DNA of 32,000 nucleotides from Geobacter metallireducens GS-15. Its GTDB lineage: Bacteria > Desulfobacterota > Desulfuromonadia > Geobacterales > Geobacteraceae. The translations under genes were made by a program, and so were the position numbers. The notes under the pieces were generated by a model that made no database searches, was not told the DNA's origin, and saw only the letters and a program-made list of their open reading frames with translations. Positions 2,924 through 22,882 of this stretch are shown piece by piece (the first letter of the stretch is position 1; every line of letters begins with the position of its first letter). Location: positions 180,001 to 212,000 of the forward strand of contig NC_007517.1 in the NCBI RefSeq assembly GCF_000012925.1, given 5' to 3'.

Positions 2924-3340
2924 ATGCAGCAAACCACCGTCGCAAACCATTCCCTCTTCCCGACCCTGCCGCCCGAGTTCCTCCCCCTGGCGCTCTATAC
3001 CGTTGCGGCAACCGTCCTGATCGGCGTCCTCCTCCTGGCCGCCTGGTGGCTCGGCGCGAAGACCACCAACCGCAACAAGGAACTCCCCTACGAATCCGGG
3101 GTCATCCCCACGGGAAGCGCCCGCCTCGCCTATCCGGTCCCCTTCTACCTCATCGCCATCTTCTTCATCGTCTTCGACGTGGAGGCGGCCTTCATCTTCG
3201 CCTGGGCCACGGCCTGGCGCGAACTGGGTCTGGCGGGGCTCATCCATATCACCTTCTTCATCGTCATCCTCCTCCTGGGGCTCGTCTGGCTCTGGATGAA
3301 GGGAGGCCTCGACTGGGGCCCTTCCCGTGAACGGAGGTGA
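2924..3340 (+). CDS. nuoA: NADH-quinone oxidoreductase subunit A
   Basis: 138 aa with three hydrophobic segments. ELPYESGVIPTGSARLAYPVPFYLIAIFFIVFDVEAAFIFAW matches the NuoA/ND3 signature. Confidence 0.9.
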   Translation: MQQTTVANHSLFPTLPPEFLPLALYTVAATVLIGVLLLAAWWLGAKTTNRNKELPYESGVIPTGSARLAYPVPFYLIAIFFIVFDVEAAFIFAWATAWRELGLAGLIHITFFIVILLLGLVWLWMKGGLDWGPSRERR

Positions 3341-3460
3341 GAAACGTGGCTTTTCCGCAATCTCTGCGTAAGTCTTCGGGACCGCTTGTGCGACGTAGCG
3401 CTGCTACGTCTCCGCGCAGTCCTTCGACAGCCTTGATCTTGCGAAAAATCCACGTTTCTC
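3339..3460. repeat. 122-nt imperfect palindromic intergenic element (E1) filling the nuoA-nuoBCD spacer
   Basis: Terminal arms 3339-3360 (GAGAAACGTGGCTTTTCCGCAA) and 3439-3460 (TTGCGAAAAATCCACGTTTCTC) are complementary at 20/22 positions. A central perfect 8-bp hairpin GACGTAGC-gct-GCTACGTC lies at 3392-3410. A C-UUCG-G tetraloop-like motif lies at 3374-3379. Confidence 0.7.
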
Positions 3461-3478
3461 GAAAAGCAGGATTAAATA

Positions 3479-5854: not shown

Positions 5855-5864
5855 AAAGGTTTTT

Positions 5865-6386
5865 ATGCTTACTAACCGTCTGAAATCTGATCTCCAGGCC
5901 CGCATCGCCCACGCCGTCACCAACCGCGAGGCGGCGGTGGACGTGATAAAGGAGCTGCAGCGGCACTACGGCTGGCTCACCGACGAGGCGGTGGCCGAGG
6001 CGGCAGGGCTCCTGGGGCTCACGCCGCTCCAGGTGGAGGAGCTGGCCACTTTCTACGAAATGATCTACCGCCGGCCGGTAGGTAAGCGGGTGGTCCACGT
6101 CTGCGACTCCATCTCCTGCTGGGCCATGGGAGGAGAGAGCCTCATGGCGCACCTGGCGGCGAAGCTCGGCGTAGAACCCGGCGGGACCACGGCGGACGGG
6201 ATGTTCACGCTCCTTCCCTGCTGCTGCCTCGGCAACTGCGGCGAGGCGCCGACGCTGATGATCGGCGACACCCTCTATGGCCGGGTGACGCCGGAGCGGG
6301 GAGAGGAAATCCTGAGCAACGCGCGGGAAACCGCAGCAACCGTGCCAGAAGGACCCGGCACACCACAAGAGGAGGAGAACGTATGA
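5865..6386 (+). CDS. nuoE: NADH-quinone oxidoreductase subunit E (2Fe-2S)
   Basis: CDSISCWAMGG and LLPCCCLGNCGEAP are the NuoE 2Fe-2S ligand blocks. I prefer the start at ATG 5865 (MLTNRL) over track start 5829, which overlaps the end of nuoBCD. Confidence 0.9.
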   Translation: MLTNRLKSDLQARIAHAVTNREAAVDVIKELQRHYGWLTDEAVAEAAGLLGLTPLQVEELATFYEMIYRRPVGKRVVHVCDSISCWAMGGESLMAHLAAKLGVEPGGTTADGMFTLLPCCCLGNCGEAPTLMIGDTLYGRVTPERGEEILSNARETAATVPEGPGTPQEEENV

Positions 6387-6715
6387 AAAAGGGAATTATC
6401 ATCTCCATCAGCCTGCTGGCCACGGCGGCGTTCGCCACGGCCGGCCTCGCCGACACCAAGAAGGGGGGGAAGATCGACGGCGCCAAGGAATTCAAGGAGC
6501 ACTGCGCCGTCTGCCACCCCGACGGCGGCAACATCGTCAACCCCGCCAAGCCCCTGAAGAAAGCGACCCTGGAGGCCAACGGGGTCAAGACCTGGAAAGA
6601 CATCGTTGCCAAGATGCGCAACCCCGGACCGGGGATGACCAAGTTCGAGAAGAAGGATGTGAGCGACAAAGAGGCAAGGGCAATCGCGGAGTATGTTCTG
6701 AAGACCTTCAAGTAG
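6383..6715 (+). CDS. periplasmic monohaem class I c-type cytochrome (110 aa)
   Basis: Signal peptide MKKGIIISISLLATAAFATAGLA. There is a single CAVCH haem motif and a candidate Met ligand in NPGPGMTKF. The ATG overlaps the nuoE stop (ATGA at 6383-6386). Confidence 0.85.
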   Translation: MKKGIIISISLLATAAFATAGLADTKKGGKIDGAKEFKEHCAVCHPDGGNIVNPAKPLKKATLEANGVKTWKDIVAKMRNPGPGMTKFEKKDVSDKEARAIAEYVLKTFK

Positions 6716-6720
6716 AGGCA

Positions 6721-6761
6721 AGAGTGGCGACTGGCCACGGTCGCCACTCTCTTCTGTTTTT
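6721..6761 (+). terminator. strong intrinsic terminator-like hairpin inside the nuo locus
   Basis: AGAGTGGCGAC (6721-6731) and GTCGCCACTCT (6740-6750) form a perfect 11-bp stem with an 8-nt loop, followed by CTTCTGTTTTT. It begins 6 nt after the cytochrome c stop codon. Confidence 0.7.
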
Positions 6762-6774
6762 GACGGAGGATGGG

Positions 6775-7113
6775 ATGCTCAGGATCAAGCGGATATACGA
6801 TCCGCCGGCGCCGGAGGACGGAACGAGGGTGCTCGTGGATCGCCTCTGGCCCCGGGGGATTTCTAAGGACGAGGCCCGGATCGACGAGTGGCTCAAGGAG
6901 ATCGCCCCCAGCGACGAACTGAGGAAGTGGTTCGGCCATGATCCGGCCCGGTGGGAGGAGTTCCGGGAACGGTTCCGGCGGGAACTGGAAGCGAAGGCGG
7001 AAATCCTGGACCACCTTCGGACTCTTGTCGGCAAGGGAACGGTAACGCTCCTCTTTGCGGCCAAGGATGAAGAGCACAACAACGCGGTGGTTTTGAAGGA
7101 AATGCTCGATTAG
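6775..7113 (+). CDS. DUF488 family protein
   Basis: RBS GGAGGA at 6765-6770 and ATG at 6775. MLRIKRIYDPPAPEDGTRVLVDRLWPRGISK...WLKEIAPS..LRKWF is the characteristic DUF488 N-terminal pattern (recalled from memory). Confidence 0.75.
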   Translation: MLRIKRIYDPPAPEDGTRVLVDRLWPRGISKDEARIDEWLKEIAPSDELRKWFGHDPARWEEFRERFRRELEAKAEILDHLRTLVGKGTVTLLFAAKDEEHNNAVVLKEMLD

Positions 7114-7116
7114 CCC

Positions 7117-8385
7117 ATGGAACAGCTCCTCTTCCGACATAACCGCCCCGGCCGGTGCGTGACCTTTGCCGAGTACCGGGCCGAGGGGGGCTTCGCGGCG
7201 CTGGAGAAAGCCCTTGCCGGCATGTCCCCCAACGACGTCCAGCAGGTCGTGATCGACTCGGGCCTGCGCGGCCGCGGCGGCGCCGGCTTCCCCACGGGGA
7301 AGAAGTGGTCCTTCGTCCCCCGGGACATCCCCGGCCCCCGTTACCTCATCTGCAACTGCGACGAGATGGAGCCGGGGACCTACAAGGACCGGGTGCTCCT
7401 GGAGGCGAACCCCTATTCCCTCGTGGAGGGGATGACCCTGGCCGCCTACGCCATCGGTGTGGCCCACGCCTTCATCTTCATCCGGCGGGGGTACGAGGAG
7501 GCGGCGGAGAACTGCCGCCGGGCCATCGCCGAGGCGAAAGCGGCGGGGCTTCTGGGGGAGAACATCCTCGGCACCGGCTTCTCCCTGGAGCTGGACGTCC
7601 ACCAGTCCGCCGGGCGCTACATCTGCGGCGAGGAAACCGCTCTCATGAACGCCCTGGAGGGGAAGCGGGCCAATCCGCGGAGCAAGCCCCCCTTCCCGGC
7701 GGTGAAGGGGCTCTGGGGGCGCCCCACGGTGGTGAACAACGTGGAGACCCTGGCAAACATCCCGGCCATCGTGGCCAACGGGGCCGCCTGGTTCAAGGGG
7801 CTGGCACGGATCCCCGAGGCGGCGGGGATGAAGCTCTTCTGCGTGAGCGGCCATGTGAACAACACCGCCTGCTTCGAGTTGCCGCTCGGGATGACCCTGG
7901 GCGAGATCATCGACGGCCCCTGCGGCGGGATGCTCCCGGGACGGGAGTTCAAGGCGTGCATCCCCGGTGGGGCGTCGACGCCGTTCTTCACGAAGGAGCA
8001 CTGGCACGTTCCCATGGATTTCGACACCGTGGCCAAGGCCGGGTCCCGGCTCGGCACCGGCGGCATCGTGGTCTTCGACCGGGACACCTGCATGGTGGCG
8101 GCAACCCTGAACCTAATCGTCTTCTACGCCCGGGAATCGTGCGGCTGGTGCACCCCCTGCCGGGAGGGGCTCCCCTTCGTGCAGGACGTCCTGGCCCGGA
8201 TCGAGGCGGGGGAGGGACGGGAGGAGCACATCGGCATCCTCCGGGAGCATATCCAATACCTCAACTACTCCTTCTGTCCCCTGGCCCCGGGCGCCATGGG
8301 GCCGGTGGAGGGACTGTTGCGGCTCTTCGAGGGCGAGATCCGGGAGCATATTGTTCTGGGGCGCTGCCCCTTTGGAGGGAAATGA
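7117..8385 (+). CDS. nuoF: NADH-quinone oxidoreductase subunit F (FMN/NADH-binding)
   Basis: GLRGRGGAGFPTGKKWSF, YICGEETALMNALEG and ESCGWCTPCREG (N3 cluster). 422 aa. Confidence 0.95.
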   Translation: MEQLLFRHNRPGRCVTFAEYRAEGGFAALEKALAGMSPNDVQQVVIDSGLRGRGGAGFPTGKKWSFVPRDIPGPRYLICNCDEMEPGTYKDRVLLEANPYSLVEGMTLAAYAIGVAHAFIFIRRGYEEAAENCRRAIAEAKAAGLLGENILGTGFSLELDVHQSAGRYICGEETALMNALEGKRANPRSKPPFPAVKGLWGRPTVVNNVETLANIPAIVANGAAWFKGLARIPEAAGMKLFCVSGHVNNTACFELPLGMTLGEIIDGPCGGMLPGREFKACIPGGASTPFFTKEHWHVPMDFDTVAKAGSRLGTGGIVVFDRDTCMVAATLNLIVFYARESCGWCTPCREGLPFVQDVLARIEAGEGREEHIGILREHIQYLNYSFCPLAPGAMGPVEGLLRLFEGEIREHIVLGRCPFGGK

Positions 8386-8954
8386 TGGCACCACCGGTGG
8401 ATGATTTCGGCGGCCTCGTCACCCGGGCCACACGGCTCTGGACAGGGAACTTCGGCAACCTGCTCATTCTCTCCCTGGTCTTCGTGCTGGTGTGCTGGAT
8501 CCCCGTCGCCAACGTGGGGTTCCTTGCCGGCTACACCCGGGCGATCCTCAAGGTGGCCAGGGGGGAAAAGGCCGAGGCAGGGGACATCTTCCGGGCGTGG
8601 GACTGCTTCGGCGACCTCTTCGTCTACCTCCTCCTGGTGCTCGTGGCCCAGTTCGCCCTGAACCACGTGCCGGGCATCGGCCAGGTGGCGGGGTTCGCCC
8701 TGGCGGTGGTGGTTGCCCCGGGGATGTACGGGATCATCGACCGGAGGATGAAGTTCATGGACGCCTTCCGCTGGAGCCTCGAAGCCATCAAGGGGGATCT
8801 GGTCGGCTGGCTCCTGGCGGTGCTCATCGGCGGCATCTTCATGGCCGTGGGGGCGCTCCTTCTCGGCATCGGCATCATCATCACCCTCGGCTGGGGAAGC
8901 CTCGTCATGGCGCTCCAGTACGACCGGGAACGGCCCCGGGTGATCATCCTGTAG
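8382..8954 (+). CDS. integral membrane protein of unknown function (190 aa) between nuoF and nuoG
   Basis: This is the last 190 codons of track ORF 7155-8954. ATGATG at 8382-8387 overlaps the nuoF stop. There are four to five hydrophobic segments (NLLILSLVFVLVCWIPVANVGFLAG, LFVYLLLVLVAQFAL, VAGFALAVVVAPGMYGII, LLAVLIGGIFMAVGALLLGIGIIITLGWGSLVMAL). It has a loose DUF975-like look, which I have not verified. Confidence 0.7.
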   Translation: MMAPPVDDFGGLVTRATRLWTGNFGNLLILSLVFVLVCWIPVANVGFLAGYTRAILKVARGEKAEAGDIFRAWDCFGDLFVYLLLVLVAQFALNHVPGIGQVAGFALAVVVAPGMYGIIDRRMKFMDAFRWSLEAIKGDLVGWLLAVLIGGIFMAVGALLLGIGIIITLGWGSLVMALQYDRERPRVIIL

Positions 8955-11069: not shown

Positions 11070-11447
11070 ATGCCAATGATCCCGGAAAAACTATTGGAAA
11101 TCATGAAACAGGACGGAGTTGTCGCCATTGCGACCTTGGGGGAGGATGGTCCGCATATGGTCAACACGTGGAATAGCTATATCAAGGTCTCACAAGACGG
11201 GCGTTTGTTCATTCCAGCGGGGTACATGCATAAGACTGAGGCCAACATTGCCCATAATCCCGATGTGCTGATCACCTTGGGAAGCAGCAAGGTTGCGGGG
11301 TTGCACGGTCCCGGCGCCGGTTTCCTGATCAAGGGTAAGGCGAACTTCATAACTTCCGGGCCGGATTTTGACTTTATGAAGGCAAAGTTCAACTGGTTAC
11401 GAGCCACATTGGCCGTTACCATCGAATCGGCCACTCAAACCTGGTGA
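11070..11447 (+). CDS. pyridoxamine 5'-phosphate oxidase-like FMN-binding split-barrel protein (125 aa)
   Basis: RBS GAGGAG lies upstream. VVAIATLGEDGPHMVNTW...KTEANIAHNPDVLITL is typical of small PNPOx-family proteins. G+C is visibly lower: three hand-counted 60-nt lines gave 57, 48 and 50%. Confidence 0.65.
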   Translation: MPMIPEKLLEIMKQDGVVAIATLGEDGPHMVNTWNSYIKVSQDGRLFIPAGYMHKTEANIAHNPDVLITLGSSKVAGLHGPGAGFLIKGKANFITSGPDFDFMKAKFNWLRATLAVTIESATQTW

Positions 11448-11546: not shown

Positions 11547-12536
11547 ATGACCCCTGTAGCCCTCGACATAGCCATCCACCTGGCCAAGATCGCCCTGATC
11601 TTCTTCGTGGTGCTGACTCTGGCGGCCTACCTGGTCTTCGCCGAGCGGCGGATTCTGGCCTGGATCCAGGACCGGAAGGGACCGAACCGGGTGGGGCCCT
11701 TTGGCCTCTTGCAGCCCCTGGCGGATCTCATCAAGCTCCTGACCAAGGAGGACTTCCGACCCGCCGGGGCCGACAAGTGGCTCTTCTACCTGGCCCCTGC
11801 CATGGCGGCGATCCCGGCCATTCTCACCTTCGCGGTGATCCCCTTCGGGGCCCCTCTGACGCTCTTCGGCAGGGAGGTGCCGCTCCAGGTGGCGGACCTG
11901 AACGTGGGGCTCCTTTTCTTTCTGGCACTCTCCTCAATAGCGGTGTATGGTGTGGCCCTGGGGGGGTGGGCGTCCAACTCCAAGTACGCGCTTTTGGGCT
12001 CCATCCGGGGGCTGGCGCAACTCATCTCCTACGAGCTGTCCATGGGGTTGTCGCTGGTGCCGACGGTGATGCTGGCCGGGTCGCTCCGGCTCTCGGACAT
12101 CGTGGCGGCCCAGGAGGGGATCTGGTTCATCGTCTATCAGCCCCTGGCATTCGTGATCTTCCTCATCAGCATCGCGGCGGAGTGCAAGCGGATTCCCTTC
12201 GACATCCCCGAGGCGGAGGGGGAGCTGGTGGCCGGGTTCCACACCGAGTACTCGGGGATGCGCTTCGGCCTTTTCTTCGTGGGGGAGTACATCAACATCA
12301 TCGTCCTCGGCGGGCTGGCAACCACCTTCTTCCTGGGGGGTTGGCACGGGCCGTGGCTCCCCCCCTTCGTCTGGTTCTCGGCGAAGACCCTCGCCTTCGC
12401 CTTCTTCTTCATCTGGATGCGGGGGACGCTGCCGCGGCTTCGCTACGACCAGCTCATGCACCTGGGCTGGAAGGTGCTGACGCCGCTGGCGCTGGTCAAC
12501 ATTCTTGTCACCGGCTGGATACTGATGCTCCGCTAA
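11547..12536 (+). CDS. nuoH: NADH-quinone oxidoreductase subunit H
   Basis: WIQDRKGPNRVGPFGLLQPLADLIKL and PFDIPEAEGELVAGFHTEYSGMRFGLFF. 329 aa, polytopic. Confidence 0.95.
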   Translation: MTPVALDIAIHLAKIALIFFVVLTLAAYLVFAERRILAWIQDRKGPNRVGPFGLLQPLADLIKLLTKEDFRPAGADKWLFYLAPAMAAIPAILTFAVIPFGAPLTLFGREVPLQVADLNVGLLFFLALSSIAVYGVALGGWASNSKYALLGSIRGLAQLISYELSMGLSLVPTVMLAGSLRLSDIVAAQEGIWFIVYQPLAFVIFLISIAAECKRIPFDIPEAEGELVAGFHTEYSGMRFGLFFVGEYINIIVLGGLATTFFLGGWHGPWLPPFVWFSAKTLAFAFFFIWMRGTLPRLRYDQLMHLGWKVLTPLALVNILVTGWILMLR

Positions 12537-12545
12537 CGGAGCATC
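12524..12545 (+). other. perfect 9-bp hairpin enclosing the nuoH stop codon
   Basis: GATGCTCCG-ctaa-CGGAGCATC, with the TAA stop (12534-12536) in the loop. Only a weak T-rich tail (ggacatttta) follows. Confidence 0.5.
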
Positions 12546-12665
12546 GGACATTTTAACGGAAAGGAGGGGAACGGGTAGTCCGCACGCATCAAGGTATCAC
12601 TCACGCATTGGTCATTGTCCCGGAGAAGTGAACTCATTACGCAACATTTCAAAGGAGGACGTGTC

Positions 12666-13091
12666 ATGGTTGAGAACGTGAATACCAAAGACAAGCATGG
12701 GCATACGCCGCTCATCGAGGCGGCCAAGACAGGGGACGCCGAGACGATCAGAGATCTCCTGAACCGCGGCGCCGACATGGATGCACGGAGCGAGAAGGGG
12801 AAGACGGCCCTGCATTACGCGGCGGCCAACGGTAAGGCAGCGGCCATCAAGACTCTGCTGGAGGCGGGGGCTGAAGTGGACCCGCGAGACATGGAATGGC
12901 ACACCCCCCTCATGCTGGCGGCCAACTACGGATGCAACGAGTGCGTGGAAACCCTTTTGACGGCCGGCGCCGACCCCCTGGCCAAAATGAAGCTCGGCAA
13001 CACCGCCCTGACCTATGCGGAAGCGAACGGACACCCCGACACCCTGGAACTGATAACGAAGGCCCAGCGGGCCAAGGCCGGAAACGCCTGA
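12666..13091 (+). CDS. ankyrin-repeat protein (141 aa, about 4 repeats)
   Basis: RBS AAAGGAGG at 12651-12658 and ATG at 12666. Repeats: GHTPLIEAAKTGDAETIRDLLNRGADMDA, GKTALHYAAANGKAAAIKTLLEAGAEVD, WHTPLMLAANYGCNECVETLLTAGADP, GNTALTYAEANGHPDTLELI. Confidence 0.85.
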   Translation: MVENVNTKDKHGHTPLIEAAKTGDAETIRDLLNRGADMDARSEKGKTALHYAAANGKAAAIKTLLEAGAEVDPRDMEWHTPLMLAANYGCNECVETLLTAGADPLAKMKLGNTALTYAEANGHPDTLELITKAQRAKAGNA

Positions 13092-13113
13092 TCCTGCAAG
13101 GGTACGTTACCGC

Positions 13114-13137
13114 AGGGGCGGGGGATGCCTCGCCCCT
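13114..13137 (+). other. GC-rich hairpin with the upstream candidate nuoI start codon in its loop
   Basis: AGGGGCGGGG-gatg-CCTCGCCCCT forms 10 bp (one G.U). ATG 13125-13127 lies in the 4-nt loop. Paired by eye. Confidence 0.45.
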
Positions 13138-13679
13138 CTGTTGCCACCATGCCCATCATCACCGACTTCAAAGCAATCGCCACCGGGCTCTTTGTCACCT
13201 GGAAGCACATCTTCCGCAGGAGCGTCACGGTGGAATACCCCGAGGTGAAGCGGACCCCCGCTCCCCGCTACCGGGCGAGGATCGTCCTCACCCGCGACCC
13301 CGAGGGGGGAGAGCGGTGCGTGGCCTGCTACCTCTGCTCCGCCGCCTGCCCCGTTGACTGCATCTCCATGGAGGCGACCGAGGACGGGAACGGCCGCCGG
13401 TACGCCCGGTGGTTCCGGATCAACTTCTCCCGCTGCATCTTCTGCGGCCTCTGCGCCGAGGCCTGCCCCACCCTCGCCATCCAGATGACCCCTGACTACG
13501 AGATCTGCGAGCGGGACATCATGGAACTGGTCTACGAGAAGGAAGACCTCCTCATCGACGGCTGCGGCAAGGACCCCGCCTACAACTTCTACCGCCATGC
13601 CGGCATCGGCGTCACCCAGCCACGGGGCGCCGGCGAGCGGGAAGAGGAACCGGTTGATGCGCGGGGACTCATGCCGTGA
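13125..13679 (+). CDS. nuoI: NADH-quinone oxidoreductase subunit I (2x 4Fe-4S)
   Basis: YPEVKRTPAPRYRARIVLTRDPEGGERCVACYLCSAACP and CIFCGLCAEACP. The start is ambiguous: ATG 13125, or ATG 13149 (MPIITDF), which gives a more typical N-terminal length. Confidence 0.9.
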   Translation: MPRPSVATMPIITDFKAIATGLFVTWKHIFRRSVTVEYPEVKRTPAPRYRARIVLTRDPEGGERCVACYLCSAACPVDCISMEATEDGNGRRYARWFRINFSRCIFCGLCAEACPTLAIQMTPDYEICERDIMELVYEKEDLLIDGCGKDPAYNFYRHAGIGVTQPRGAGEREEEPVDARGLMP

Positions 13680-13810
13680 CATCCCCACGCCTGAGCGTCT
13701 AACCGGCAGACCGATCCTGCCTCTCCATCCCCGCATTCCGCAAGCCCTCCCCTTCCACAGCAACAGACTTTATGCCGAAAATGAAACAGTGGCTTACAAT
13801 TACCAAACTC

Positions 13811-13816
13811 TATAAT
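13811..13816 (+). promoter_or_regulatory. perfect TATAAT hexamer in an AT-rich patch (candidate -10 element)
   Basis: TATAAT at 13811-13816 sits in a local 47% G+C stretch (hand count of line 13741-13800). No good -35 lies at 16-18 nt; TTACAA is only 11 nt upstream. Confidence 0.25.
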
Positions 13817-13897
13817 GTGTGGATGTTGCGGCATCTCAGAGCCCAGGCACATGCGCACGCTAGACTGCGACAGGGGACCATCAGCGAGGTTTCCTGC

Positions 13898-13993
13898 ATG
13901 TGGCCCCGTCCCGGCAGCACCGACCCGGTGCCCAAGGTGAGCTTCGTCACAAAGGTGGACGATCAGGTCTGCACGGTGGGCTACTACAAGTAG
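13898..13993 (+). CDS. candidate 31-aa small protein (MWPRPGSTDPVPKVSFVTKVDDQVCTVGYYK); may extend upstream to 13772
   Basis: GAGG at 13886-13889 lies 8 nt before ATG 13898. 28 of the 31 sense-codon third positions are G/C, as in neighbouring real genes. A strong terminator follows 38 nt downstream. I recognised no homologue. Confidence 0.35.
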   Translation: MWPRPGSTDPVPKVSFVTKVDDQVCTVGYYK

Positions 13994-14031
13994 CATGGAT
14001 TGACATCTCCCCCACGGAAGTATGAACGCAT

Positions 14032-14075
14032 GGGGTCTCTCCGGCGAAAAACTGCCGGGAGAGGCCCCTTTTTTT
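14032..14075 (+). terminator. strong intrinsic terminator 37 nt upstream of nuoJ
   Basis: GGGGTCTCTCCGGC (14032-14045), loop gaaaaact, then GCCGGGAGAGGCCCC (14054-14068, one bulged G and one G.U), followed by seven T (14069-14075). Confidence 0.75.
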
Positions 14076-14112
14076 CTGCAATTTACCCCCGATATGGTAG
14101 ATTTTATCCGAT

Positions 14113-14598
14113 ATGGAATCGGCCCTCTTCTACATCCTGGCCGTTGTAACGGTCACGGGCACCGCCTTCGCCATCACGGAAAAGCACGCGGTGCACGCCA
14201 TCGTCTACCTCGTCACCTCGTTTTTCGCCCTGGCGGTGATCTTCTTCCTGCTCGGAGCGCCGGTGGTGGCAATCTTCGAGGTGATCATCTACGCCGGCGC
14301 CATCATGGTCCTCTTCCTCTTCGTGATCATGATGCTCGACCTGGGGCACCCGGAGCGGGCGCGGCTTCCCGGAATCCGGGAGTGGTGGCCGGCCCTTGCC
14401 CTCGGCGCCGTGACCCTGGCGTCGGCCCTGGCCCTCGTCGTATCCCGCGCCCCGGCGATTCCGGCACCGGGGAAAGCCATCGGCGTCAAGGAGTTCGCCC
14501 TGGCCCTCTTCGGCAAGTACGGCGTGGCGGTGGAAGTCATTTCGATGCAGCTCCTTTTCGCGCTCGTCGGGGCGCTTTACCTGGCACGGAAGCGATAG
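14113..14598 (+). CDS. nuoJ: NADH-quinone oxidoreductase subunit J
   Basis: 161 aa, hydrophobic. AIVYLVTSFFALAVIFFLLGAPVVAIFEVIIYAGAIMVLFLFVIMML is a NuoJ-like core. Confidence 0.9.
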   Translation: MESALFYILAVVTVTGTAFAITEKHAVHAIVYLVTSFFALAVIFFLLGAPVVAIFEVIIYAGAIMVLFLFVIMMLDLGHPERARLPGIREWWPALALGAVTLASALALVVSRAPAIPAPGKAIGVKEFALALFGKYGVAVEVISMQLLFALVGALYLARKR

Positions 14599-14651: not shown

Positions 14652-14936
14652 ATGAAACATCTCAAGGGAATGGTTGTTCTGCTGGCTGCAGTAGTGGCGA
14701 TGTCCGCGGTCGGATGCAAGAAGAAGGAGGTAGGGCCGGCGGAGAAGGCGGGACAAGAGATCGACAAGGCCGTGGAAAAGGCCGGCGAAGGGCTTGGCAA
14801 GGCAACCGAAAAGAGCAAGGAGGCTGTCGAGAAAGCCGGTGAAAAGGTGGGCGAGGCCGTCGACAAAAGCAAAGAGGCAGTCGACAAGGCTGCCGACAAG
14901 ACCAAAGATGCGGTCAAGGACGCAACACAGAAGTAA
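14652..14936 (+). CDS. small lipoprotein with Lys/Glu/Ala-rich 11-mer repeats (94 aa)
   Basis: RBS AAGGAGG at 14639-14645. Lipobox LAAVVAMSAVG-C. The mature part is repetitive: EKAGQEIDKAVEKAGEGLGKATEKSKEAVEKAGEKVGEAVDKSKEAVDKAADKTKDAVKDA. This is the last 94 codons of track ORF 14022-14936. Confidence 0.75.
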   Translation: MKHLKGMVVLLAAVVAMSAVGCKKKEVGPAEKAGQEIDKAVEKAGEGLGKATEKSKEAVEKAGEKVGEAVDKSKEAVDKAADKTKDAVKDATQK

Positions 14937-14951: not shown

Positions 14952-15256
14952 ATGATCGTCCCCTTTGAGCACGTCCTGATCCTGGCCGGCATCCTCTTTG
15001 CCCTGGGGCTCGTCTGCGTCCTGGTCTGGCGGATGAACCTGATCATGCTCCTCATCGGCATCGAGGTGATGCTCAACGCCGCCATGCTCGCCTTTGTGGG
15101 AGGGGCGGCCCGATGGGGAATGGCCGACGGCCAGGTCTTCTCCCTCGTCATCATGGCCCTCACCTCAGCCGAGGTCTCCCTGGCCCTGGCCATGGTGGTC
15201 TACCTCCACCGGCGCAAGAGGACGGTGGATGCGGATGAGTTCAGCGAGCTGAAGGG

Positions 15257-15260
<4 letters not shown>
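14952..15260 (+). CDS. nuoK: NADH-quinone oxidoreductase subunit K
   Basis: 102 aa with three TM segments. LIGIEVMLNAAMLAF and ALTSAEVSLALAMVVYL carry the conserved membrane glutamates. Confidence 0.92.
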
Positions 15261-17134
<1,874 letters not shown>

Positions 17135-17198: not shown

Positions 17199-17891
17199 AT
17201 GAGCACGAAGAGCGAAACTCACTATGCGGAGCGAATCGGCTGGCTGCGGGCGGCAGTGCTCGGGGCCAACGACGGGATCATTTCCACCGCGAGCCTGGTC
17301 GTGGGGGTGGCGGCCGCCCATGCCGCCCGGGGAAATGTGCTCATAGCCGGGGTGGCGGGCCTCGTCGCCGGCACCATGTCCATGGCAGCGGGCGAGTATG
17401 TGTCCGTCAGCTCCCAAGCCGACACCGAAAAGGCCGACCTGGCCCGCGAGAGGAGGGAACTGGAGGAAGACCACGAGTTCGAGCTCAAGGAACTTGCGTC
17501 CATCTATGTGGACAGGGGGCTTGAACCGCAGCTTGCCAAGCAGGTCGCTACGCAGCTCATGGCCCACGACGCCCTGGCGGCCCACGCCCGCGACGAACTG
17601 GGGCTCAACGAAATACACACTGCGCGCCCCATCCAGGCGGCACTGGCGTCGGCGGTCACCTTTGCCGTCGGAGCAACCCTCCCCCTCATCATCACCCTGC
17701 TCAGTCCGGAGCAACTCATCGTCCCCGGCGTGGCCGGAGGCTCCCTCGTCTGCCTGGCGCTCCTGGGAACGCTGGCGGCACGGGCTGGGGGCGCGGACAT
17801 CGCCGTCGGCGCAACGCGGGTAACGCTCTGGGGGGCGCTGGCCATGGCGGCCACGGCAGGGGTCGGGGCGCTCTTCGGGACGGCTGTGTGA
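17199..17891 (+). CDS. VIT1/CCC1-family membrane protein (putative Fe/Mn transporter)
   Basis: ERIGWLRAAVLGANDGIISTASLVVGVAAA, SMAAGEYVSVSSQ, and an acidic central helix (ERRELEEDHEFELKEL) followed by three TM segments. Confidence 0.8.
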   Translation: MSTKSETHYAERIGWLRAAVLGANDGIISTASLVVGVAAAHAARGNVLIAGVAGLVAGTMSMAAGEYVSVSSQADTEKADLARERRELEEDHEFELKELASIYVDRGLEPQLAKQVATQLMAHDALAAHARDELGLNEIHTARPIQAALASAVTFAVGATLPLIITLLSPEQLIVPGVAGGSLVCLALLGTLAARAGGADIAVGATRVTLWGALAMAATAGVGALFGTAV

Positions 17892-17987: not shown

Positions 17988-19778
17988 ATGACCATCATCA
18001 CTGCTCACTGCCGGTGCATCCTGCAGTCTGTCGCTTCCCTTATTCTGCTACTGCTTTTTGTGCAGGTCGGCGCAGCTCAGCCTTCTGATGCAGCTCAGCC
18101 TCCTGATACGTGCAGTGGCTGCCACGCGGACCGGTCGAAAATGCTTCGGTTCGGCTTCCCCCACCTGAGCGTGACTGCTGAGGAGGCAACCAGGCAATCA
18201 GGCATGAACGCAGCCTGTTCAGATTGCCATTTGGGAGACCCGACGAACCCGGGCCGCACGGCTGCCCACCGGGGCATGGGACGGTTGCTATTGGTGCGCA
18301 AGAAAGGGATGCTGGCCGAGTCTGTACAGCGCGAGGCCCCTCTGAAGCTGACCGGCAATCCCATGACCCGTATTCAGCATCAAATCGTCAGGGACGGCAA
18401 GGTGGTCATCGACCCCAATGTCACCCTGATCCTCTATCAGGACAAGCGTCGAGACAATCTTTCCCAGGATTTCGGCGTCATGGAGAAGACCTGCGGCGCC
18501 TGCCATGCCAAGGAGTTCTCCGAGTTCACCCAGAGTACTATGGGACGCAACGCCAAACAGAGCCGATACCAGAGCTGGACCGACCAACAGCGAGGCCCCC
18601 ATAACTGCGGCGCATGGTTCAATGGAAATTACGAGAGAATCTCAACCAACACGGCCGTCCCCTTTTCTCGGGAGCAAAGTGCGTTGAACCAGCGCAGTTG
18701 CAACACCTGCCACGTGGGGTGCCTCGATTGTCACTACGATCCACAGCCGACGGATCCGGCCAACCCAAAGCGGGGGATACACACCTTCAACCGAGTACCG
18801 AAGCCGGAAAGCTGCTATGGTGGCGGCCGTGGGCAGATCTGCCATGCCGGGCCGGAGGAGCGGCGCCGGGGAGCGGGCTATTTCGGCGGCAGCTACGCCA
18901 ACCCGGAGGGAATGGAGCCGGACATCCATCAGGCTAAGAAGGTTGGCTGTCTCGACTGCCACGAAAACAGCGGATCCAAGAGCGGCCTGGGACATGGGAT
19001 GATCAAGCGGCAGGGACGTTGCGACCGGTGCCACGAGCGGCAGGTCGCCAGCCACAAGCTGACGCTACACAAAACTCTCTCCTGCGAAGCATGCCACATT
19101 CAGAACATTTCCGGCTACCAGGGGACCTTCTGGGGACCAGGCAAACTGGCCGGTTCAAACACGCCCTTCTTCAAGTACAAGGAATACTACGGGATCATGA
19201 AGGAGCCTATTCTGATACGCGATCAAAACGGGCGCTGGATACCGGTAAAACCATTTCCGATGGCGGTCCTGAACCAGAAGGAGTCGGCATTGAAGCCGGG
19301 GCTGCACTGGCGCTGGCCCAAAGAACTGCCCGACCTGCAGCGCACCGATGACGCTTACGGGTATGTCGGGCTGTTCGACGGCTTGCCCGAGAACAACCGG
19401 GCACTGGCATGGATCCAGATGGACAAGGTCTCCCATAAATATGGGAAAAGCCGTCCTTGCGCCTCGTGCCACGAGTTGCCCGACGGCGAGCAGCGCCAGC
19501 ATGTGGAATGGGACTTCACTGACGCCGGCGCTTTACCCTTCAGCGGGAGTCACGTGGTAGTTGCCGGGAAGAAGGGGCTTTCCATTCGTGACATGAAGTC
19601 TGAAAAAATCGACGTCCTCGATGGATACCGCTTGTCCAGCCTGGCACCCTGGTTCTATTTGAAGGATCGTTGGCAAATTGAGGGAGACTTCTCCTTGCCG
19701 TCGATCAAGGAGCAGGAGTTCTACAGCCGGGCCAAGGGAGATGTCGCCAAGGCGCGTCAGGCGAGGGTTGTGCATTGA
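17988..19778 (+). CDS. secreted multihaem c-type cytochrome (596 aa, nine CXXCH plus one possible CX8CH)
   Basis: RBS AAGGAG at 17976-17981. Signal peptide ...LILLLLFVQVGAAQP. Haem motifs: CSGCH, CSDCH, CGACH, CNTCH, CLDCH, CLDCH, CDRCH, CEACH, CASCH. The C-terminal ~200 aa contain only one haem motif. G+C is lower than the flanks: two hand-counted lines gave 55 and 48%. Confidence 0.9.
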   Translation: MTIITAHCRCILQSVASLILLLLFVQVGAAQPSDAAQPPDTCSGCHADRSKMLRFGFPHLSVTAEEATRQSGMNAACSDCHLGDPTNPGRTAAHRGMGRLLLVRKKGMLAESVQREAPLKLTGNPMTRIQHQIVRDGKVVIDPNVTLILYQDKRRDNLSQDFGVMEKTCGACHAKEFSEFTQSTMGRNAKQSRYQSWTDQQRGPHNCGAWFNGNYERISTNTAVPFSREQSALNQRSCNTCHVGCLDCHYDPQPTDPANPKRGIHTFNRVPKPESCYGGGRGQICHAGPEERRRGAGYFGGSYANPEGMEPDIHQAKKVGCLDCHENSGSKSGLGHGMIKRQGRCDRCHERQVASHKLTLHKTLSCEACHIQNISGYQGTFWGPGKLAGSNTPFFKYKEYYGIMKEPILIRDQNGRWIPVKPFPMAVLNQKESALKPGLHWRWPKELPDLQRTDDAYGYVGLFDGLPENNRALAWIQMDKVSHKYGKSRPCASCHELPDGEQRQHVEWDFTDAGALPFSGSHVVVAGKKGLSIRDMKSEKIDVLDGYRLSSLAPWFYLKDRWQIEGDFSLPSIKEQEFYSRAKGDVAKARQARVVH

Positions 19779-19945
19779 AAAAGCTTCTGTCATGGGGTGC
19801 CGTCGGACTCCTAACGAGCGCCCTGCTCGATCCGCTCATCTATTCCATGCTGGAGAAGCCGATTCCGTGGCTGCGCGATATACTCATGGGGGCGGGGGGC
19901 TGCGTCTGCTTCTATCTCCTGATCCGCTTCCGCAATGAGCTGTGA
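19775..19945 (+). CDS. candidate 56-aa two-TM micro-protein, translationally coupled to the cytochrome (TTG start)
   Basis: TTG 19775-19777 overlaps the cytochrome stop (cATTGA). Translation: (M)KKLLSWGAVGLLTSALLDPLIYSMLEKPIPWLRDILMGAGGCVCFYLLIRFRNEL. 43/56 third positions are G/C. It is absent from the track because of the non-ATG start. Confidence 0.4.
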   Translation: MKKLLSWGAVGLLTSALLDPLIYSMLEKPIPWLRDILMGAGGCVCFYLLIRFRNEL

Positions 19946-19988
19946 CGGTGGCGGGTTGCCACAAAACGTGATGTCGTAAAACAGGTAC

Positions 19989-21485
19989 TTGATCGTGACC
20001 GACTATCCGATCCTCACCATCCTCATCTTCCTCCCCCTGGCGGGATGCCTCTGTTTAGCGCCGGTCTGGCACTGCCGGACGTCTGCCCGCGCCGTGGCCC
20101 TGGGGTTTGCCGTTGCCGAACTGGCCCTGGCGGCGTGGCTTCTGGTGGCCGCCACGGGGATGCCCGCCGCCCCCGGCGCGCCGACGGGGTATTTCCTCTG
20201 GGAGGATGCCGTGTGGATCGAGCGCTTCGGCATCCGCTACCTCCTTGGGATGGACGGGATCAGCCTCCTCATGGTGGCGCTCACGGCCTTCATCACGGTG
20301 GTCGCCATGGCGGTATCGTGGCGCGCCGTCACCGAGCGGACGGCCCTCCACTATTTCCTCATCCTCCTCATGGAGAGCGGGCTCATGGGGGTCTTCCTCG
20401 CCCTGGATCTCGTCCTCTTCTACCTCTTCTGGGAGGTGATGCTGATCCCCATGTTCTTCCTGATCGGCATCTGGGGACACGGCCGCCGCATCTACTCGGC
20501 GGTGAAGTTCTTCCTCTACACCCTGGCCGGTTCACTCCTGATGCTCCTGGCCATCATCGGGGTCTACCTCATACATGGCGATGCCACCGGCATCTACACC
20601 TTCACCCTCCCCCTCCTGGCCAAGGCCCCCATAGCCCACGCCGCGGCACCGTGGCTCTTCGGGGCGTTTCTCCTGGCCTTCGCCATCAAGTTCCCCCTCT
20701 TCCCGGTGCACACCTGGCTCCCCGATGCCCACACCGACGCCCCCACGGCCGGGAGCGTGATCCTGGCGGCGCTCCTCCTGAAAACCGGGGCCTATGGGCT
20801 GGTTCGCTTCGGCTACCCCCTCTTTCCCGAGGCGGCCAAGGGGTTCACGCCCTTCATTTCGGCGCTGGCCGTCGTCGGCATCCTCTACGCCTCGTGGGTC
20901 GCCTATGCCCAGGAGGACATGAAGCGGATGGTGGCCTACTCCAGCGTGGGGCACATGGGGTTCGTGGCCCTGGGAATCGCCTCCTGGAGCCCGGTGGCCC
21001 TGTCCGGTTCCATCCTCCAGATGGTGAACCACGGCGTCACCACCGGCGCCCTCTTCGCCCTGGTGGGGATGCTGGACGAACGGACCGATACCCGGGAGAT
21101 CGCCGCCTACGGCGGGGTGTGGGGGAAAGCGCCCAAGCTCGCCTTCTTCTTTCTCCTTTTCGCCATGACATCGGCGGGGTTGCCGGGGCTCAACAACTTC
21201 ACGGGCGAATTCCTGATCCTTGCGGGGGTCTTCCGGACTACGCCGGCGGCAGCGGCCATCGCCTTTATCGGCATCGTGCTGCCGCTCATCTACACAGTGA
21301 GGCTCGTGCAGGAGGTGCTCTTCCAGACGGAGCGGCGGCCCCTGCGACTGCCGGACGTGACCCTGCGGGAGGAGGCGCTTCTGGCGGTGCTGGCGACGAT
21401 CGACGTGTATATCGGTGTCCATCCGAAACCGCTCCTGGATATCCTCAAGGTGCCGGTGGCGCTCCTGACGGGGGCGACGCCATGA
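19989..21485 (+). CDS. nuoM: NADH-quinone oxidoreductase subunit M (antiporter-like)
   Basis: 498 aa. FAIKFPLFPVHTWLPDAHTDAPTAGSVILAALLLKTGAYG. TTG start at 19989; GTG at 19995 is an alternative. Confidence 0.93.
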   Translation: MIVTDYPILTILIFLPLAGCLCLAPVWHCRTSARAVALGFAVAELALAAWLLVAATGMPAAPGAPTGYFLWEDAVWIERFGIRYLLGMDGISLLMVALTAFITVVAMAVSWRAVTERTALHYFLILLMESGLMGVFLALDLVLFYLFWEVMLIPMFFLIGIWGHGRRIYSAVKFFLYTLAGSLLMLLAIIGVYLIHGDATGIYTFTLPLLAKAPIAHAAAPWLFGAFLLAFAIKFPLFPVHTWLPDAHTDAPTAGSVILAALLLKTGAYGLVRFGYPLFPEAAKGFTPFISALAVVGILYASWVAYAQEDMKRMVAYSSVGHMGFVALGIASWSPVALSGSILQMVNHGVTTGALFALVGMLDERTDTREIAAYGGVWGKAPKLAFFFLLFAMTSAGLPGLNNFTGEFLILAGVFRTTPAAAAIAFIGIVLPLIYTVRLVQEVLFQTERRPLRLPDVTLREEALLAVLATIDVYIGVHPKPLLDILKVPVALLTGATP

Positions 21486-22882
21486 CCATAACCGAACTCT
21501 GGGCCCTCATCCCTCTTCTGATCCTCGCCTGCGGGAGCGTCTTCGTGCTCATGCTCGGGGCAATCGTGCCGGGACGGTGCGGAACCGTCATCGGCGTTGC
21601 CGTCTGCGCCGGCACGGCTCTCTGGGCGATGCTGGCTCCGCCGCAGCCCCTGGCGCCGCCGACTCTGGGAGTGACCGTCACCCCCTTTACCCGCTTCTTC
21701 CTCGTATTTTTCGCCGTGACGGCAGGCTTGTCGCTCCTCCTGGCCCGAGACCATGCGGCGCGGCAGGGGCTTAAGGGGGAGGAGTACCCGGCCACGATCC
21801 TCTTCGGCACCTTCGGCATGGGTGTGGTGGCGAGCGCGGCCAACTTCCTGACCCTCTTCCTGGGGCTGGAGGCCCTCACCTTCGCCTTCTACATTCTGGT
21901 GGCCTACGACCACAACCGCCCGGCGTCCGGGGAGGCAGGGCTCAAGTACCTCCTCATGGGGGCCGTGTCGGCGGCCTTTGTGGCATTCGGCATCGCGCTC
22001 CTCTACGGGGCCACGGGGACCCTGGAGATTAGCCGGGCCGTGGCCGCCTCGGCAGCCGGGGGAGGGATCGCCCTGGCGGGATGGGGGCTCCTCTTGGCGG
22101 GGCTCGCCTTCAAGATATCCCTGGCACCGGCCCACCTCTGGACCCCGGACATCTACCAGGGGGGGCCGACGCCGGTGGTGGCCTTCCTCGCCTCCGGCTC
22201 CAAGGGGGCGGCCATCGCCCTTTTCCTGCTCATTCTCTCCCCCCTCGGAACGCTCGGCACCCTGCGGGCGCCCCTCTGGGGGCTGGCGTTCCTCTCCATG
22301 ACCGTCGGGAACCTGGCGGCACTCCTGCAGCCCAACGTGAAGCGGATGCTCGCCTACTCATCCGTGGCCCAGATGGGGTACGTGGCCCTGGCGCTCCTGT
22401 CGGGGGGACGGGGGTACGAGGCTGCGGCGTTTTATGCCGTGGCCTACGGAGCCATGGTCCTGGCTGCCTTCGGCGCCCTTGCCTCCCTGGAGGGAGAAAC
22501 GCCGCTGGAACAGGTGGATGACCTCCGGGGGCTCGGCTATCACCGCCCCTTCCAGGGGGTGGTGCTGGCCGTGGCCATGCTCGCCCTGGCAGGGATTCCT
22601 CCAACGGTGGGCTTTGTGGGAAAGTTCGCCATCTTCTTCGCGGCCCTGAAAGGGGGAGAGGCTCCCCTGGCGGTCATCGGCATCCTCACGGCGGCGGCCT
22701 CGGCCTACTACTACCTGCGGGTGGTGGTGAACCTCTACATGAAACCGGCGGATGAGACGGGCTCCGGCCAACGCCCCACCGTTGCGGAAGCGCTCTCCCT
22801 TGGCATTGCAGCCCTCGCCATCTTCATCCTCGGCATCTGGCCCGGCCCCCTCTTCGACCTGGCAGCCGCGATTCTTCGCTAG
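21482..22882 (+). CDS. nuoN: NADH-quinone oxidoreductase subunit N (antiporter-like)
   Basis: 466 aa, the last part of track ORF 20045-22882. ATGA overlap with the nuoM stop. FKISLAPAHLWTPDIYQGGPTPVVAFLASGSKGAA. Confidence 0.93.
   Translation: MTITELWALIPLLILACGSVFVLMLGAIVPGRCGTVIGVAVCAGTALWAMLAPPQPLAPPTLGVTVTPFTRFFLVFFAVTAGLSLLLARDHAARQGLKGEEYPATILFGTFGMGVVASAANFLTLFLGLEALTFAFYILVAYDHNRPASGEAGLKYLLMGAVSAAFVAFGIALLYGATGTLEISRAVAASAAGGGIALAGWGLLLAGLAFKISLAPAHLWTPDIYQGGPTPVVAFLASGSKGAAIALFLLILSPLGTLGTLRAPLWGLAFLSMTVGNLAALLQPNVKRMLAYSSVAQMGYVALALLSGGRGYEAAAFYAVAYGAMVLAAFGALASLEGETPLEQVDDLRGLGYHRPFQGVVLAVAMLALAGIPPTVGFVGKFAIFFAALKGGEAPLAVIGILTAAASAYYYLRVVVNLYMKPADETGSGQRPTVAEALSLGIAALAIFILGIWPGPLFDLAAAILR

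Follow-up and report, generated by a model that had tools for sequence, protein, structure and literature searches.

Bacterial complex I carries supernumerary subunits in some lineages, such as Nqo15 and Nqo16 of Thermus thermophilus and the homologues of NDUFS4, NDUFS6 and NDUFA12 in Paracoccus. In Paracoccus denitrificans and Rhodobacter capsulatus, unidentified reading frames (URFs) reportedly lie scattered among the nqo/nuo genes, according to work in the 1990s by Xu, Matsuno-Yagi and Yagi and by Dupuis and colleagues, and those R. capsulatus open reading frames (ORFs) that were tested are said not to be needed for the enzyme. Here we describe a 32,000-nt stretch of the Geobacter metallireducens GS-15 genome (the window, to which all coordinates refer) that contains the second complex I operon of this organism, a fused-nuoBCD cluster of type E at approximately Gmet_0152-0172, in which ten non-nuo ORFs lie between the nuo genes. 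An original prediction from the DNA suggested that these inserts might be accessory subunits or assembly factors, or might link complex I electronically to periplasmic cytochromes. The locus is already annotated, and we find that the functional accessory reading is largely not supported.

The closest described system is the orthologous and syntenic nuo-2 cluster of G. sulfurreducens, GSU3429-GSU3445, which has been classed as type E (PMC5585712; PMC4453560). Because of this synteny and the 79-94% identity of the nuo proteins (NuoE being lowest), we extend the classification of PMC5585712 to the G. metallireducens cluster. The G. sulfurreducens cluster likewise has a DUF488 gene at the E/F junction (that is, between nuoE and nuoF), a membrane-protein gene at F/G and an ankyrin-repeat gene at H/I, and the statement in the original prediction that a second Geobacter nuo cluster carries inserted genes was thus right. 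Unlike G. metallireducens it lacks the cytochrome c, the PNPOx gene, the sensor-gene remnant, the lipoprotein, the VIT1 transporter, the multihaem cytochrome and the 56-aa ORF; YjdM and a PAS/GAF histidine kinase are encoded at G/H, and J-K-L-M-N are contiguous.

In G. metallireducens, 14 of 14 complex I modules are encoded by 12 nuo genes that are intact and colinear from A to N, with one 791-aa ORF holding NuoB, NuoC and NuoD as PF01058, PF00329 and PF00346 in order. These domain calls come from a Pfam scan of ORF products, in which the nuo matches covered near-full profile length; no internal stops were found in the nuo genes. Ratios of nonsynonymous to synonymous substitution (dN/dS), computed pairwise against up to four genomes, range from 0.04 to 0.39 for the nuo genes and are mostly ≤0.25; judged by these ratios, the genes are shown to be under strong purifying selection. 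Pfam matches and coordinates confirmed that seven junctions hold ten non-nuo ORFs, all on the strand of the intact core subunit genes, and that the cytochrome c, DUF488, PNPOx, ankyrin, VIT1 and multihaem families had been named correctly. The seven interrupted junctions predicted from the DNA are real, but two non-coding interruptions (3338-3478 and 6718-6774) have to be added, so that eight of 11 junctions are affected. We consider it likely that this is a functional but mosaic type E cluster whose junctions allow unrelated genes to be gained, lost and replaced. The changing cargo at fixed junctions, the compact out-groups and the unlinked expression described below argue that most inserts are passengers and not parts of the enzyme.

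We located related loci by a NuoH scan of species-representative genomes, which gave 80 loci of mostly distant complex I onto which all window proteins were mapped, and reached closer genomes through NuoH homologues and exact-protein look-ups with 10-kb flanks. The close loci were those of G. sulfurreducens (L084), G. pickeringii (L085), G. hydrogenophilus (L086), G. argillaceus (L088), a Geobacter bin (L090), a contig (L087) whose NuoH carries the NCBI name Geotalea uraniireducens and a Geobacteraceae groundwater bin (L089). Metagenome fragments L091-L096 added coverage, and about 15 related loci were compared overall. Between species the nuo proteins are 84-99% identical, and the DNA alignment with G. 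hydrogenophilus breaks at gene edges; after nuoL, for example, homology ends at 17126 and resumes at 19776, one base past the start of the 56-aa ORF, so that 2.65 kb at L/M in G. metallireducens faces 2.0 kb of unrelated DNA.

The contents of the junctions differ from locus to locus. A 155-aa ORF is present at BCD/E in G. hydrogenophilus. DUF488 occurs at E/F in all seven Geobacter-clade loci that include this junction, except L089 and L094. The small cytochrome is found there in G. metallireducens, G. hydrogenophilus, G. pickeringii, L090 and, with two copies each, G. argillaceus and L094; this cytochrome also lies directly 5' of nuoF in L106 and L131 and is absent at the locus from G. sulfurreducens, L087 and L093. 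Most loci have the membrane protein at F/G, which in G. pickeringii and L089 holds PDDEXK_3 instead and in G. argillaceus V4R and GGDEF genes. At G/H the PNPOx gene is found in G. metallireducens and G. hydrogenophilus only, and YjdM in G. sulfurreducens, G. pickeringii and L090. Further G/H cargo includes the PAS/GAF histidine kinase of G. sulfurreducens, a ParE/HTH pair (L090), a DUF4160/DUF2442 pair (G. hydrogenophilus) and an Ada-type zinc protein, and the junction is empty in L087 and L089. The ankyrin gene occupies H/I in every Geobacter-clade locus examined, including G. argillaceus and L003, with the exception of L089. I/J carries an intact sCache_2 gene in G. hydrogenophilus and L090, a 68-aa ORF in L087, a metallo-beta-lactamase and DUF3795 pair in the more distant L006 and nothing in G. 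sulfurreducens, while the lipoprotein at J/K is confined to G. metallireducens and G. hydrogenophilus. Four ORFs, including a PhdYeFM antitoxin gene on the opposite strand, lie at K/L in G. argillaceus. At L/M, G. metallireducens is the only one of the compared loci with VIT1 and the multihaem cytochrome (98%-identical proteins exist in G. grbiciae, but their genomic context lies outside the comparison); G. hydrogenophilus has a 138-aa ORF and PAS-SpoIIE there, and L090 has AbiEii-like and nucleotidyltransferase pairs. In G. metallireducens, G. hydrogenophilus and L090 the 56-aa ORF (89% identity) immediately precedes nuoM and forms the right-hand edge of the variable L/M cassette. All but about four of approximately 50 cargo genes are co-directional with nuo.

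The nearest out-groups are compact. In L001, L002 and L004, the closest three loci with sufficient sequence (NuoH 78-87% and NuoBCD 80-82% identical), there are no inserted ORFs and the non-coding gaps are ≤119 bp; DUF488, the membrane protein, the ankyrin gene and cytochrome c are all absent from these three loci and from L089.

Three other loci were seen in this survey. The Geobacter bin L003 (1-20258) has nuoH, the ankyrin gene, nuoI, nuoJ, nuoK and nuoL, with nuoA-nuoG not within 10 kb upstream and nuoM and nuoN not within 5 kb downstream, and its cluster appears split. In G. pickeringii (L085, 15301-20999), nuoL is followed by an IS3 transposase, an endonuclease/phosphatase-family gene, an nSTAND/AAA ATPase and a RelE/HTH pair, and neither nuoM nor nuoN was found within 5.9 kb after nuoL. 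L008, from an uncultured deltaproteobacterium, is a cluster of the 11-subunit type without nuoE, nuoF and nuoG, in which a 603-aa reverse transcriptase (11568-13379; RVT_1, E 2.5e-39), probably belonging to a group II intron, lies between nuoI and nuoJ.

The inserts of G. metallireducens fall into three layers that differ in age. The old layer, family- or genus-wide and with native codon usage, consists of the membrane protein, DUF488, the ankyrin gene and the small cytochrome. The closest species also have PNPOx, the lipoprotein, the 56-aa ORF and the sensor-domain gene that is decayed here, whereas VIT1 plus the multihaem cytochrome, and both non-coding elements, are lineage-specific. Four of the inserts, VIT1, the multihaem cytochrome, PNPOx and the lipoprotein, count as cargo at the species level. 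The G+C content at third codon positions (GC3) upholds the division into native-like and lower-G+C inserts made in the original prediction: it is 0.82-0.92 in nuo genes, 0.92 in the membrane protein, 0.87 in cytochrome c and 0.82 in VIT1, and then falls through the ankyrin gene (0.80), DUF488 (0.79), the micro-ORF (0.75), the multihaem cytochrome (0.72) and the lipoprotein (0.68) to PNPOx (0.65). The membrane protein, cytochrome c and VIT1 make up the native group, and the multihaem cytochrome, the lipoprotein and PNPOx the lower one. Shared inserts (cytochrome, DUF488, membrane protein, PNPOx, ankyrin, lipoprotein and 56-aa ORF) have dN/dS of 0.05-0.32, a range like that of the nuo genes, with 0.16-0.24 for the small cytochrome, 0.08-0.19 for DUF488, 0.08-0.17 for the ankyrin gene and 0.12-0.14 for the 56-aa ORF.

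Close homologues of two species-level inserts, the multihaem cytochrome and PNPOx, are found in other genomic contexts. The multihaem cytochrome family (670 hits) is common in Geobacteraceae, and homologues 82% and 80% identical adjoin a PAS kinase or a lipocalin gene with no nuo genes near. A 54-aa ORF that follows a Geomonas homologue of this cytochrome was considered as a relative of the 56-aa ORF and rejected as unrelated. PNPOx homologues 89-90% identical in amino acids and 82% in nucleotides lie in 47%-G+C contigs in non-nuo contexts, next to a PAS sensor, a methyltransferase or a PhdYeFM-PIN pair, and the DNA similarity is confined to the coding sequence. The VIT1 protein cluster at 90% identity has three members.

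The I/J unit was initially described as an orphan small ORF. The ORF is present, but it does not appear to be an independent gene. DNA shared with G. hydrogenophilus and L090 at this junction is limited to 13872-14112, and 13872-13993 corresponds to the in-frame 3' end of their sCache_2 gene, whose intact product is 148 aa in both. Because only this segment is homologous, and in frame, to the sCache_2 3' end, Gmet_0164 is read as a decayed 3' fragment of a sensor-domain gene that would have acquired a new 5' end. A conserved 31-codon stretch within it (13898-13993) was considered as a micro-protein and rejected, being the in-frame 3' end of the sensor-domain gene of the sister species.

DUF488 gives an indication of how alleles may move. 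Its synonymous divergence (dS) from G. hydrogenophilus is 0.60, compared with approximately 0.2 for the flanking genes, and it is closer to the L090 allele (88%) than to that of G. hydrogenophilus (79%). The discordant dS points to recombination within the cluster, over the tract 6775-7113. A sequence search of the PDB gave no solved structure for DUF488, and the only functional lead in the literature was an association with the ParB fold in fusion proteins.

Transcript levels provide a separate measure of whether the inserts belong to the enzyme. We used published values (log2, normalized by trimmed mean of M-values) for co-cultures with Methanosarcina barkeri and Methanosarcina acetivorans, quoted here in that order (PMC10989804 supplement). 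The nuo genes rise together by approximately 2 log2 units between the two conditions (nuoBCD 8.15/10.49, nuoF 7.81/10.14, nuoM 7.48/9.26), and Gmet_0158 rises with them by 1.9 (7.25/9.11). Cytochrome c (9.90/9.32), DUF488 (8.05/8.24), VIT1 (7.92/8.07) and the multihaem cytochrome (9.17/9.38) are flat or falling. The ankyrin gene (11.70/10.08) is far above nuoH and nuoI and changes in the opposite direction, and the lipoprotein stands at 11.90/9.68 where nuoJ and nuoK are at 5.4 and 7.5 with M. barkeri; the nuo neighbours of these two inserts span 5.4-9.8 log2. Over these two conditions six of the inserts (the OmcF-like cytochrome, DUF488, ankyrin, lipoprotein, VIT1 and multihaem cytochrome) do not track the nuo genes and are expressed on their own terms. 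The ankyrin and DUF488 genes are conserved genes with their own regulation. In the same data, G. metallireducens grown with M. barkeri expresses the ankyrin and lipoprotein genes at levels that place them with its highly expressed genes, 4- to 90-fold above the flanking nuo genes.

Start and stop overlaps with nuo genes, which we take as translational coupling, are exactly where they had been predicted (ATGA at 6383-6386, ATGATG at 8382-8387 and TTGA at 19775-19778). Such coupling to a nuo gene, together with co-regulation, is credible for Gmet_0158 only. Most of the inserts are missing from relatives that have nuo loci, an outcome that the original prediction had itself named as speaking against it, and as an account of the whole set its proposal of accessory subunits or assembly factors is not supported, given this variation between species and the six inserts unlinked to nuo expression.

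The two cytochromes were of particular interest as a possible electron link from complex I to a periplasmic or extracellular electron-transfer chain. Both have signal peptides and are transcribed, and the small cytochrome, whose start overlaps the nuoE stop (ATGA), recurs beside nuoF in several lineages. It is a paralogue of OmcF, and its G. sulfurreducens counterpart, GSU2743, lies elsewhere in the genome (PMC2700814). The multihaem cytochrome has nine canonical CXXCH motifs, where a published table says '10 hemes'. Among all loci compared, G. metallireducens alone has it within the nuo cluster, and its 80-82% homologues lie elsewhere. G. sulfurreducens has neither cytochrome at the locus, and the transcripts of both diverge from those of nuo. 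Moreover, complex I reduces quinone within the membrane arm interface, and we know of no periplasmic redox site in the enzyme. We regard an electron link as very improbable, and this part of the original prediction is left unsupported.

Gmet_0158 is the one insert that combines a start/stop overlap with nuoF, regulation in step with nuo and a recurrent place between nuoF and nuoG. Close orthologues (≥68% identity) all lie between these two genes. The six closest of 80 metagenome loci adjoin nuoF and, where the contig reaches, nuoG, and seven distant homologues (45-50% identity) adjoin nuoF and/or nuoG, both flanking wherever the contig extends. Homologues 62-97% identical are 189-233 aa long; those at 41-55% are mostly 210-234 aa and many of them have an N-terminal zinc ribbon. 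The AlphaFold2 model of Gmet_0158 is confident (pLDDT 87, pTM 0.82) and all-helical. Its best fold match is to CysZ (PDB 3tx3; also 6d9z, CysZ/EI24-type) and is weak, with a probability of 0.98 and TM of 0.55-0.58 but E of 0.27-0.74, 12-13% sequence identity and no Pfam match at threshold, so that membership is not established. EI24 gave faint hits in two members of the Gmet_0158 family, and CysZ lacks the N-terminal zinc ribbon that distant relatives of Gmet_0158 carry.

Some homologues stand in a different setting. A stand-alone set in one lineage (L173, 7705-11947; L174, 236-7554) comprises nuoE and nuoF, then a zinc-ribbon membrane protein, a 270-aa protein and nuoG; it adjoins CbiX, CbiC and CbiD, and the rest of the nuo genes are not near it. 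In L134 and L100 the membrane protein, the 270-aa protein, CbiX and CbiC occur in that order without nuo genes.

In our judgement it is rather unlikely that a subset of the conserved inserts serves as lineage-specific accessory or assembly factors, with the 189-aa membrane protein as the main candidate and ankyrin and DUF488 as weaker ones. The overlap with the nuoF stop, the native GC3, the transcript that rises with nuo and the position of orthologues between nuoF and nuoG, including that in the stand-alone nuoE-nuoF-X-nuoG cluster, all favour the membrane protein; fixed positions across the genus and dN/dS of 0.08-0.19 favour ankyrin and DUF488. However, the membrane protein is replaced in G. 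pickeringii, L089 and G. argillaceus while nuo remains intact, and approximately 60 of 80 metagenome homologues have no nuo gene within ≤4 kb on each side (many of the contigs being short), several of them adjoining cobalamin genes. NuoF and NuoG are located at the tip of the peripheral arm, away from the membrane, which makes a polytopic membrane protein an unlikely direct partner in the assembled enzyme. The ankyrin and DUF488 transcripts do not track nuo, and none of the three proteins resembles a known accessory subunit. Across all ten inserts, six (VIT1, multihaem cytochrome, PNPOx, lipoprotein, 73-aa ORF and 56-aa ORF) are not present wherever the enzyme is, and four (DUF488, membrane protein, ankyrin and cytochrome c) are so only in part, the membrane protein having been replaced three times. 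The accessory-subunit idea therefore fails on conservation for six of ten inserts and on expression for six, and survives weakly for the membrane protein, which we retain as a weak candidate accessory factor.

The many independent insertions at gene boundaries in the same orientation also raise the question of whether a dedicated mobile-cassette system, integron-like or element-driven, targets the cluster. The cargo includes typical members of the mobile pool (toxin-antitoxin, AbiEii-like and nucleotidyltransferase pairs, IS3 and, in a relative, a group II intron-like reverse transcriptase), PDDEXK_3 has entered the same junction twice, and a multicopy palindromic element sits at A/BCD in G. 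metallireducens. On the other hand, no integrase, transposase or recombinase domain was found among the window ORFs scanned, there is no tRNA gene in the window, and no repeat or target motif is common to the junctions beyond codon-usage echoes. Cargo sizes run from 31-aa remnants up to 600-aa cytochromes, and no flank is shared among them. We judge a dedicated system to be improbable, and prefer tolerance of the junctions themselves as the explanation.

The palindromic element is a 141-bp insertion at 3338-3478 with 22-nt terminal inverted repeats (3339-3360 and 3439-3460) around a central palindrome, GACGTAGCGCTGCTACGTC, and a long hairpin is predicted for its RNA (-49.5 kcal/mol). None of the other five species in the comparison has the insertion, and in them nuoA and nuoBCD abut or overlap. 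An intergenic element family of 24 copies with the palindrome consensus GRCGTAGCGCTGCTACGCC has been described in G. metallireducens (PMC2700814, Additional file 4). The palindromes, which were compared without their flanks, match at 18 of 19 positions and the intergenic position also fits; on this basis the insertion can be assigned to the 24-copy family. A scan of the whole window, including the 141-bp element, gave no Rfam family. The second non-coding insertion, of 57 bp, separates the cytochrome and DUF488 genes, which are 4 bp apart in G. hydrogenophilus and G. pickeringii. No further copies of these two hairpin/palindrome elements were found within the window.

Two strong terminator-like hairpins are internal to the cluster (6721-6761 and 14032-14075), and the latter, with its T7 tract, is kept in G. 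hydrogenophilus and L090. Such hairpins within the cluster point to several transcription units rather than one operon, and the cluster is probably organized in this way. A sigma-70 consensus scan found no internal promoters; the only match lies 5' of nuoA, and the count was not above that in shuffled controls. In the nuoH-ankyrin spacer, aligned over seven species, the ribosome-binding site alone is conserved and there is no clear promoter.

Terminators and a gene remnant could also be signs of decay, with the cluster being a redundant isozyme on its way to a pseudogene array and the insertions merely symptoms. Transposon sequencing in G. sulfurreducens showed that the orthologous GSU3429-3445 is not required with fumarate, whereas GSU0338-0351 is required (PMC5585712), and in G. 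metallireducens the other complex I cluster, nuo-1 (Gmet_3342 onward), is expressed at approximately 12-13 log2 (PMC10989804), above the cluster studied here. The IS element after nuoL in G. pickeringii, with nuoM and nuoN not nearby, would fit the same idea. Nonetheless, we find decay scarcely credible, as all nuo frames are intact, the proteins are highly conserved between species with dN/dS mostly ≤0.25, and the nuo genes are transcribed and regulated together.

We instead favour a working cluster with tolerant junctions. To survive, an insertion would have to be co-directional and leave the downstream nuo genes expressed. The conserved flanking nuo genes could then serve as homology arms, so that cassettes would be swapped between species by recombination, and the tolerance itself may follow from the cluster being the lesser-used of two complex I isozymes. 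Several points weigh against this explanation. The mechanism of insertion is not shown, with neither a target motif nor a recombinase found, and the role given to homologous recombination depends on one discordant gene, DUF488. Four of the inserts are too widely kept and too well conserved for casual passengers, and 'cargo' may understate them. The expression values are steady-state RNA from co-cultures rather than maps of transcription starts, dispensability comes from another species under one growth condition, and the control for insertion density is a single compact cluster of the nuo-1 type (L029, a Geobacter metagenome bin). A more ambitious version, which we put forward only tentatively, is that the type E cluster could be an integrase-free platform for cassette exchange. 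Here the nuo genes would provide both homology arms and read-through transcription, genes landing in any junction would be kept, expressed and passed between species by recombination, and the NADH-oxidising module would have a genuine partner, not described before, in the zinc-ribbon-derived membrane protein.

Table 1. Positions of the nuo genes, inserted ORFs and other features in the window.
Feature	Position	Strand	Remarks
Sigma-70-like promoter match TTGACA-16-TAGAGT, 5' of nuoA	2858..2885	+	Consensus match only
nuoA	2924..3340	+	PF00507; 88-95% identical in other Geobacter species
141-bp non-coding insertion	3338..3478	.	Palindromic, multicopy family
Fused nuoBCD, 791 aa	3479..5854	+	PF01058 + PF00329 + PF00346
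nuoE	5865..6386	+	PF01257; start per gene callers
Monohaem c-type cytochrome Gmet_0155	6383..6715	+	PF13442; signal peptide; OmcF paralogue
Terminator-like hairpin (13-bp stem) and T-tract	6721..6761	+	Within 57-bp insertion 6718-6774; -29.6 kcal/mol
DUF488 protein Gmet_0156	6775..7113	+	PF22752/PF04343; top Pfam match 'inactive DUF488-N3 subclade'
nuoF	7117..8385	+	PF01512, PF10589
189-aa polytopic membrane protein Gmet_0158	8385..8954	+	No Pfam family
nuoG, 642 aa	8964..10892	+	Pfam
PNPOx-family flavoprotein Gmet_0160	11076..11447	+	PNPOx_N PF01243; G+C 0.516
nuoH	11547..12536	+	PF00146
Ankyrin-repeat protein Gmet_0162	12666..13091	+	Pfam ankyrin repeats
nuoI	13125..13679	+	Pfam
73-aa ORF Gmet_0164 (ABB30411), read as gene remnant	13772..13993	+	3' homology to sCache_2 gene
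Intrinsic-terminator-like hairpin and T7 tract, nuoI/nuoJ	14032..14075	+	-28 kcal/mol
nuoJ	14113..14598	+	Pfam
94-aa lipoprotein Gmet_0166, Lys/Glu-rich repeats	14652..14936	+	Weak matches to LEA- and MT0933-type low-complexity families
nuoK	14952..15260	+	Pfam
nuoL	15257..17134	+	Pfam
VIT1/CCC1-family Fe/Mn transporter Gmet_0169	17199..17891	+	PF01988, E 4.6e-67
596-aa multihaem cytochrome Gmet_0170	17988..19778	+	Cytochrome_C7-type; 9 CXXCH motifs
56-aa hydrophobic micro-ORF, directly 5' of nuoM	19775..19945	+	No Pfam family; record AFR42788
nuoM	19989..21485	+	Pfam
nuoN	21482..22882	+	Pfam
110-aa membrane protein, 12 bp 3' of nuoN	22895..23227	+	Weak GlpM match; PF28289 in precomputed hits

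Some details complete the gene map. The genes themselves stand as predicted, but gene callers correct the starts of four, namely nuoE (5865), DUF488 (6775), ankyrin (12666) and the multihaem cytochrome (17988). The Pfam scan gave no family for the membrane protein (189/190 aa), the 73-aa ORF or the 56-aa ORF. G. metallireducens GS-15/RCH3 records for inserted proteins are ABB30402, ABB30403, ABB30405, ABB30407, ABB30411, ABB30416 and ABB30417. The ankyrin protein has no signal peptide on reading its N-terminus; the lipoprotein has been flagged with a lipobox and annotated 'OsmY' (PMC10989804 supplement).

An acetate kinase gene and two redox genes lie 5' of the cluster. The latter are adjacent, and gene callers split each into two ORFs. 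The first (1890-2360, + strand) encodes a peroxiredoxin with one in-frame TGA (2019-2021) at the position of the active-site cysteine (FYPKDSTPG*TKE), and the second (2370-2822, + strand) a zinc-ribbon thioredoxin with one in-frame TGA (2589-2591), also at the active-site cysteine position (FWAPW*PHC). The L087 peroxiredoxin is an unbroken 155-aa ORF. From their reading frames, both of the TGA-interrupted genes look selenocysteine-containing. On the 3' side, the 110-aa membrane protein is followed by a dihydrolipoamide-dehydrogenase-like flavoprotein, transketolase and other housekeeping genes. The 110-aa protein is found in the same place in G. sulfurreducens and L087 (78-83% identity, dN/dS 0.12-0.17), and could be one more conserved passenger, at the cluster's 3' end.

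Collectively, these data show a long, conserved and dispensable operon that gains and exchanges genes at its junctions without losing its own reading frames, and indicate that insertions can bring terminators and independent regulation into an 'operon'. Cytochromes, a transporter and a lipoprotein nested among nuo genes are no evidence for a periplasmic electron outlet of complex I, and the candidates for accessory factors are narrowed to one membrane protein family, with ankyrin and DUF488 as weaker ones. The cluster is also a caution against inferring function from operon membership. In the literature searched we found no discussion of the inserted genes as a set, or of cargo turnover at fixed junctions among Geobacter.

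How do these inserts compare with additions to complex I in other bacteria? Nqo15, Nqo16 and the Paracoccus supernumerary subunits are lineage-specific additions to the 14-subunit core, which is the role first proposed for the Geobacter inserts. Unlike those proteins, most of the inserts are not conserved with the enzyme, and in the Pfam scan none of the ten showed homology to those or other known accessory subunit families. The nqo/nuo operons of alphaproteobacteria offer another likeness, since there too co-directional non-subunit ORFs stand between colinear complex I genes. The protein families differ, however, and for the Geobacter cluster the comparison reveals rapid replacement of cargo among sister species, along with terminators inside the cluster and inserts regulated apart from nuo.

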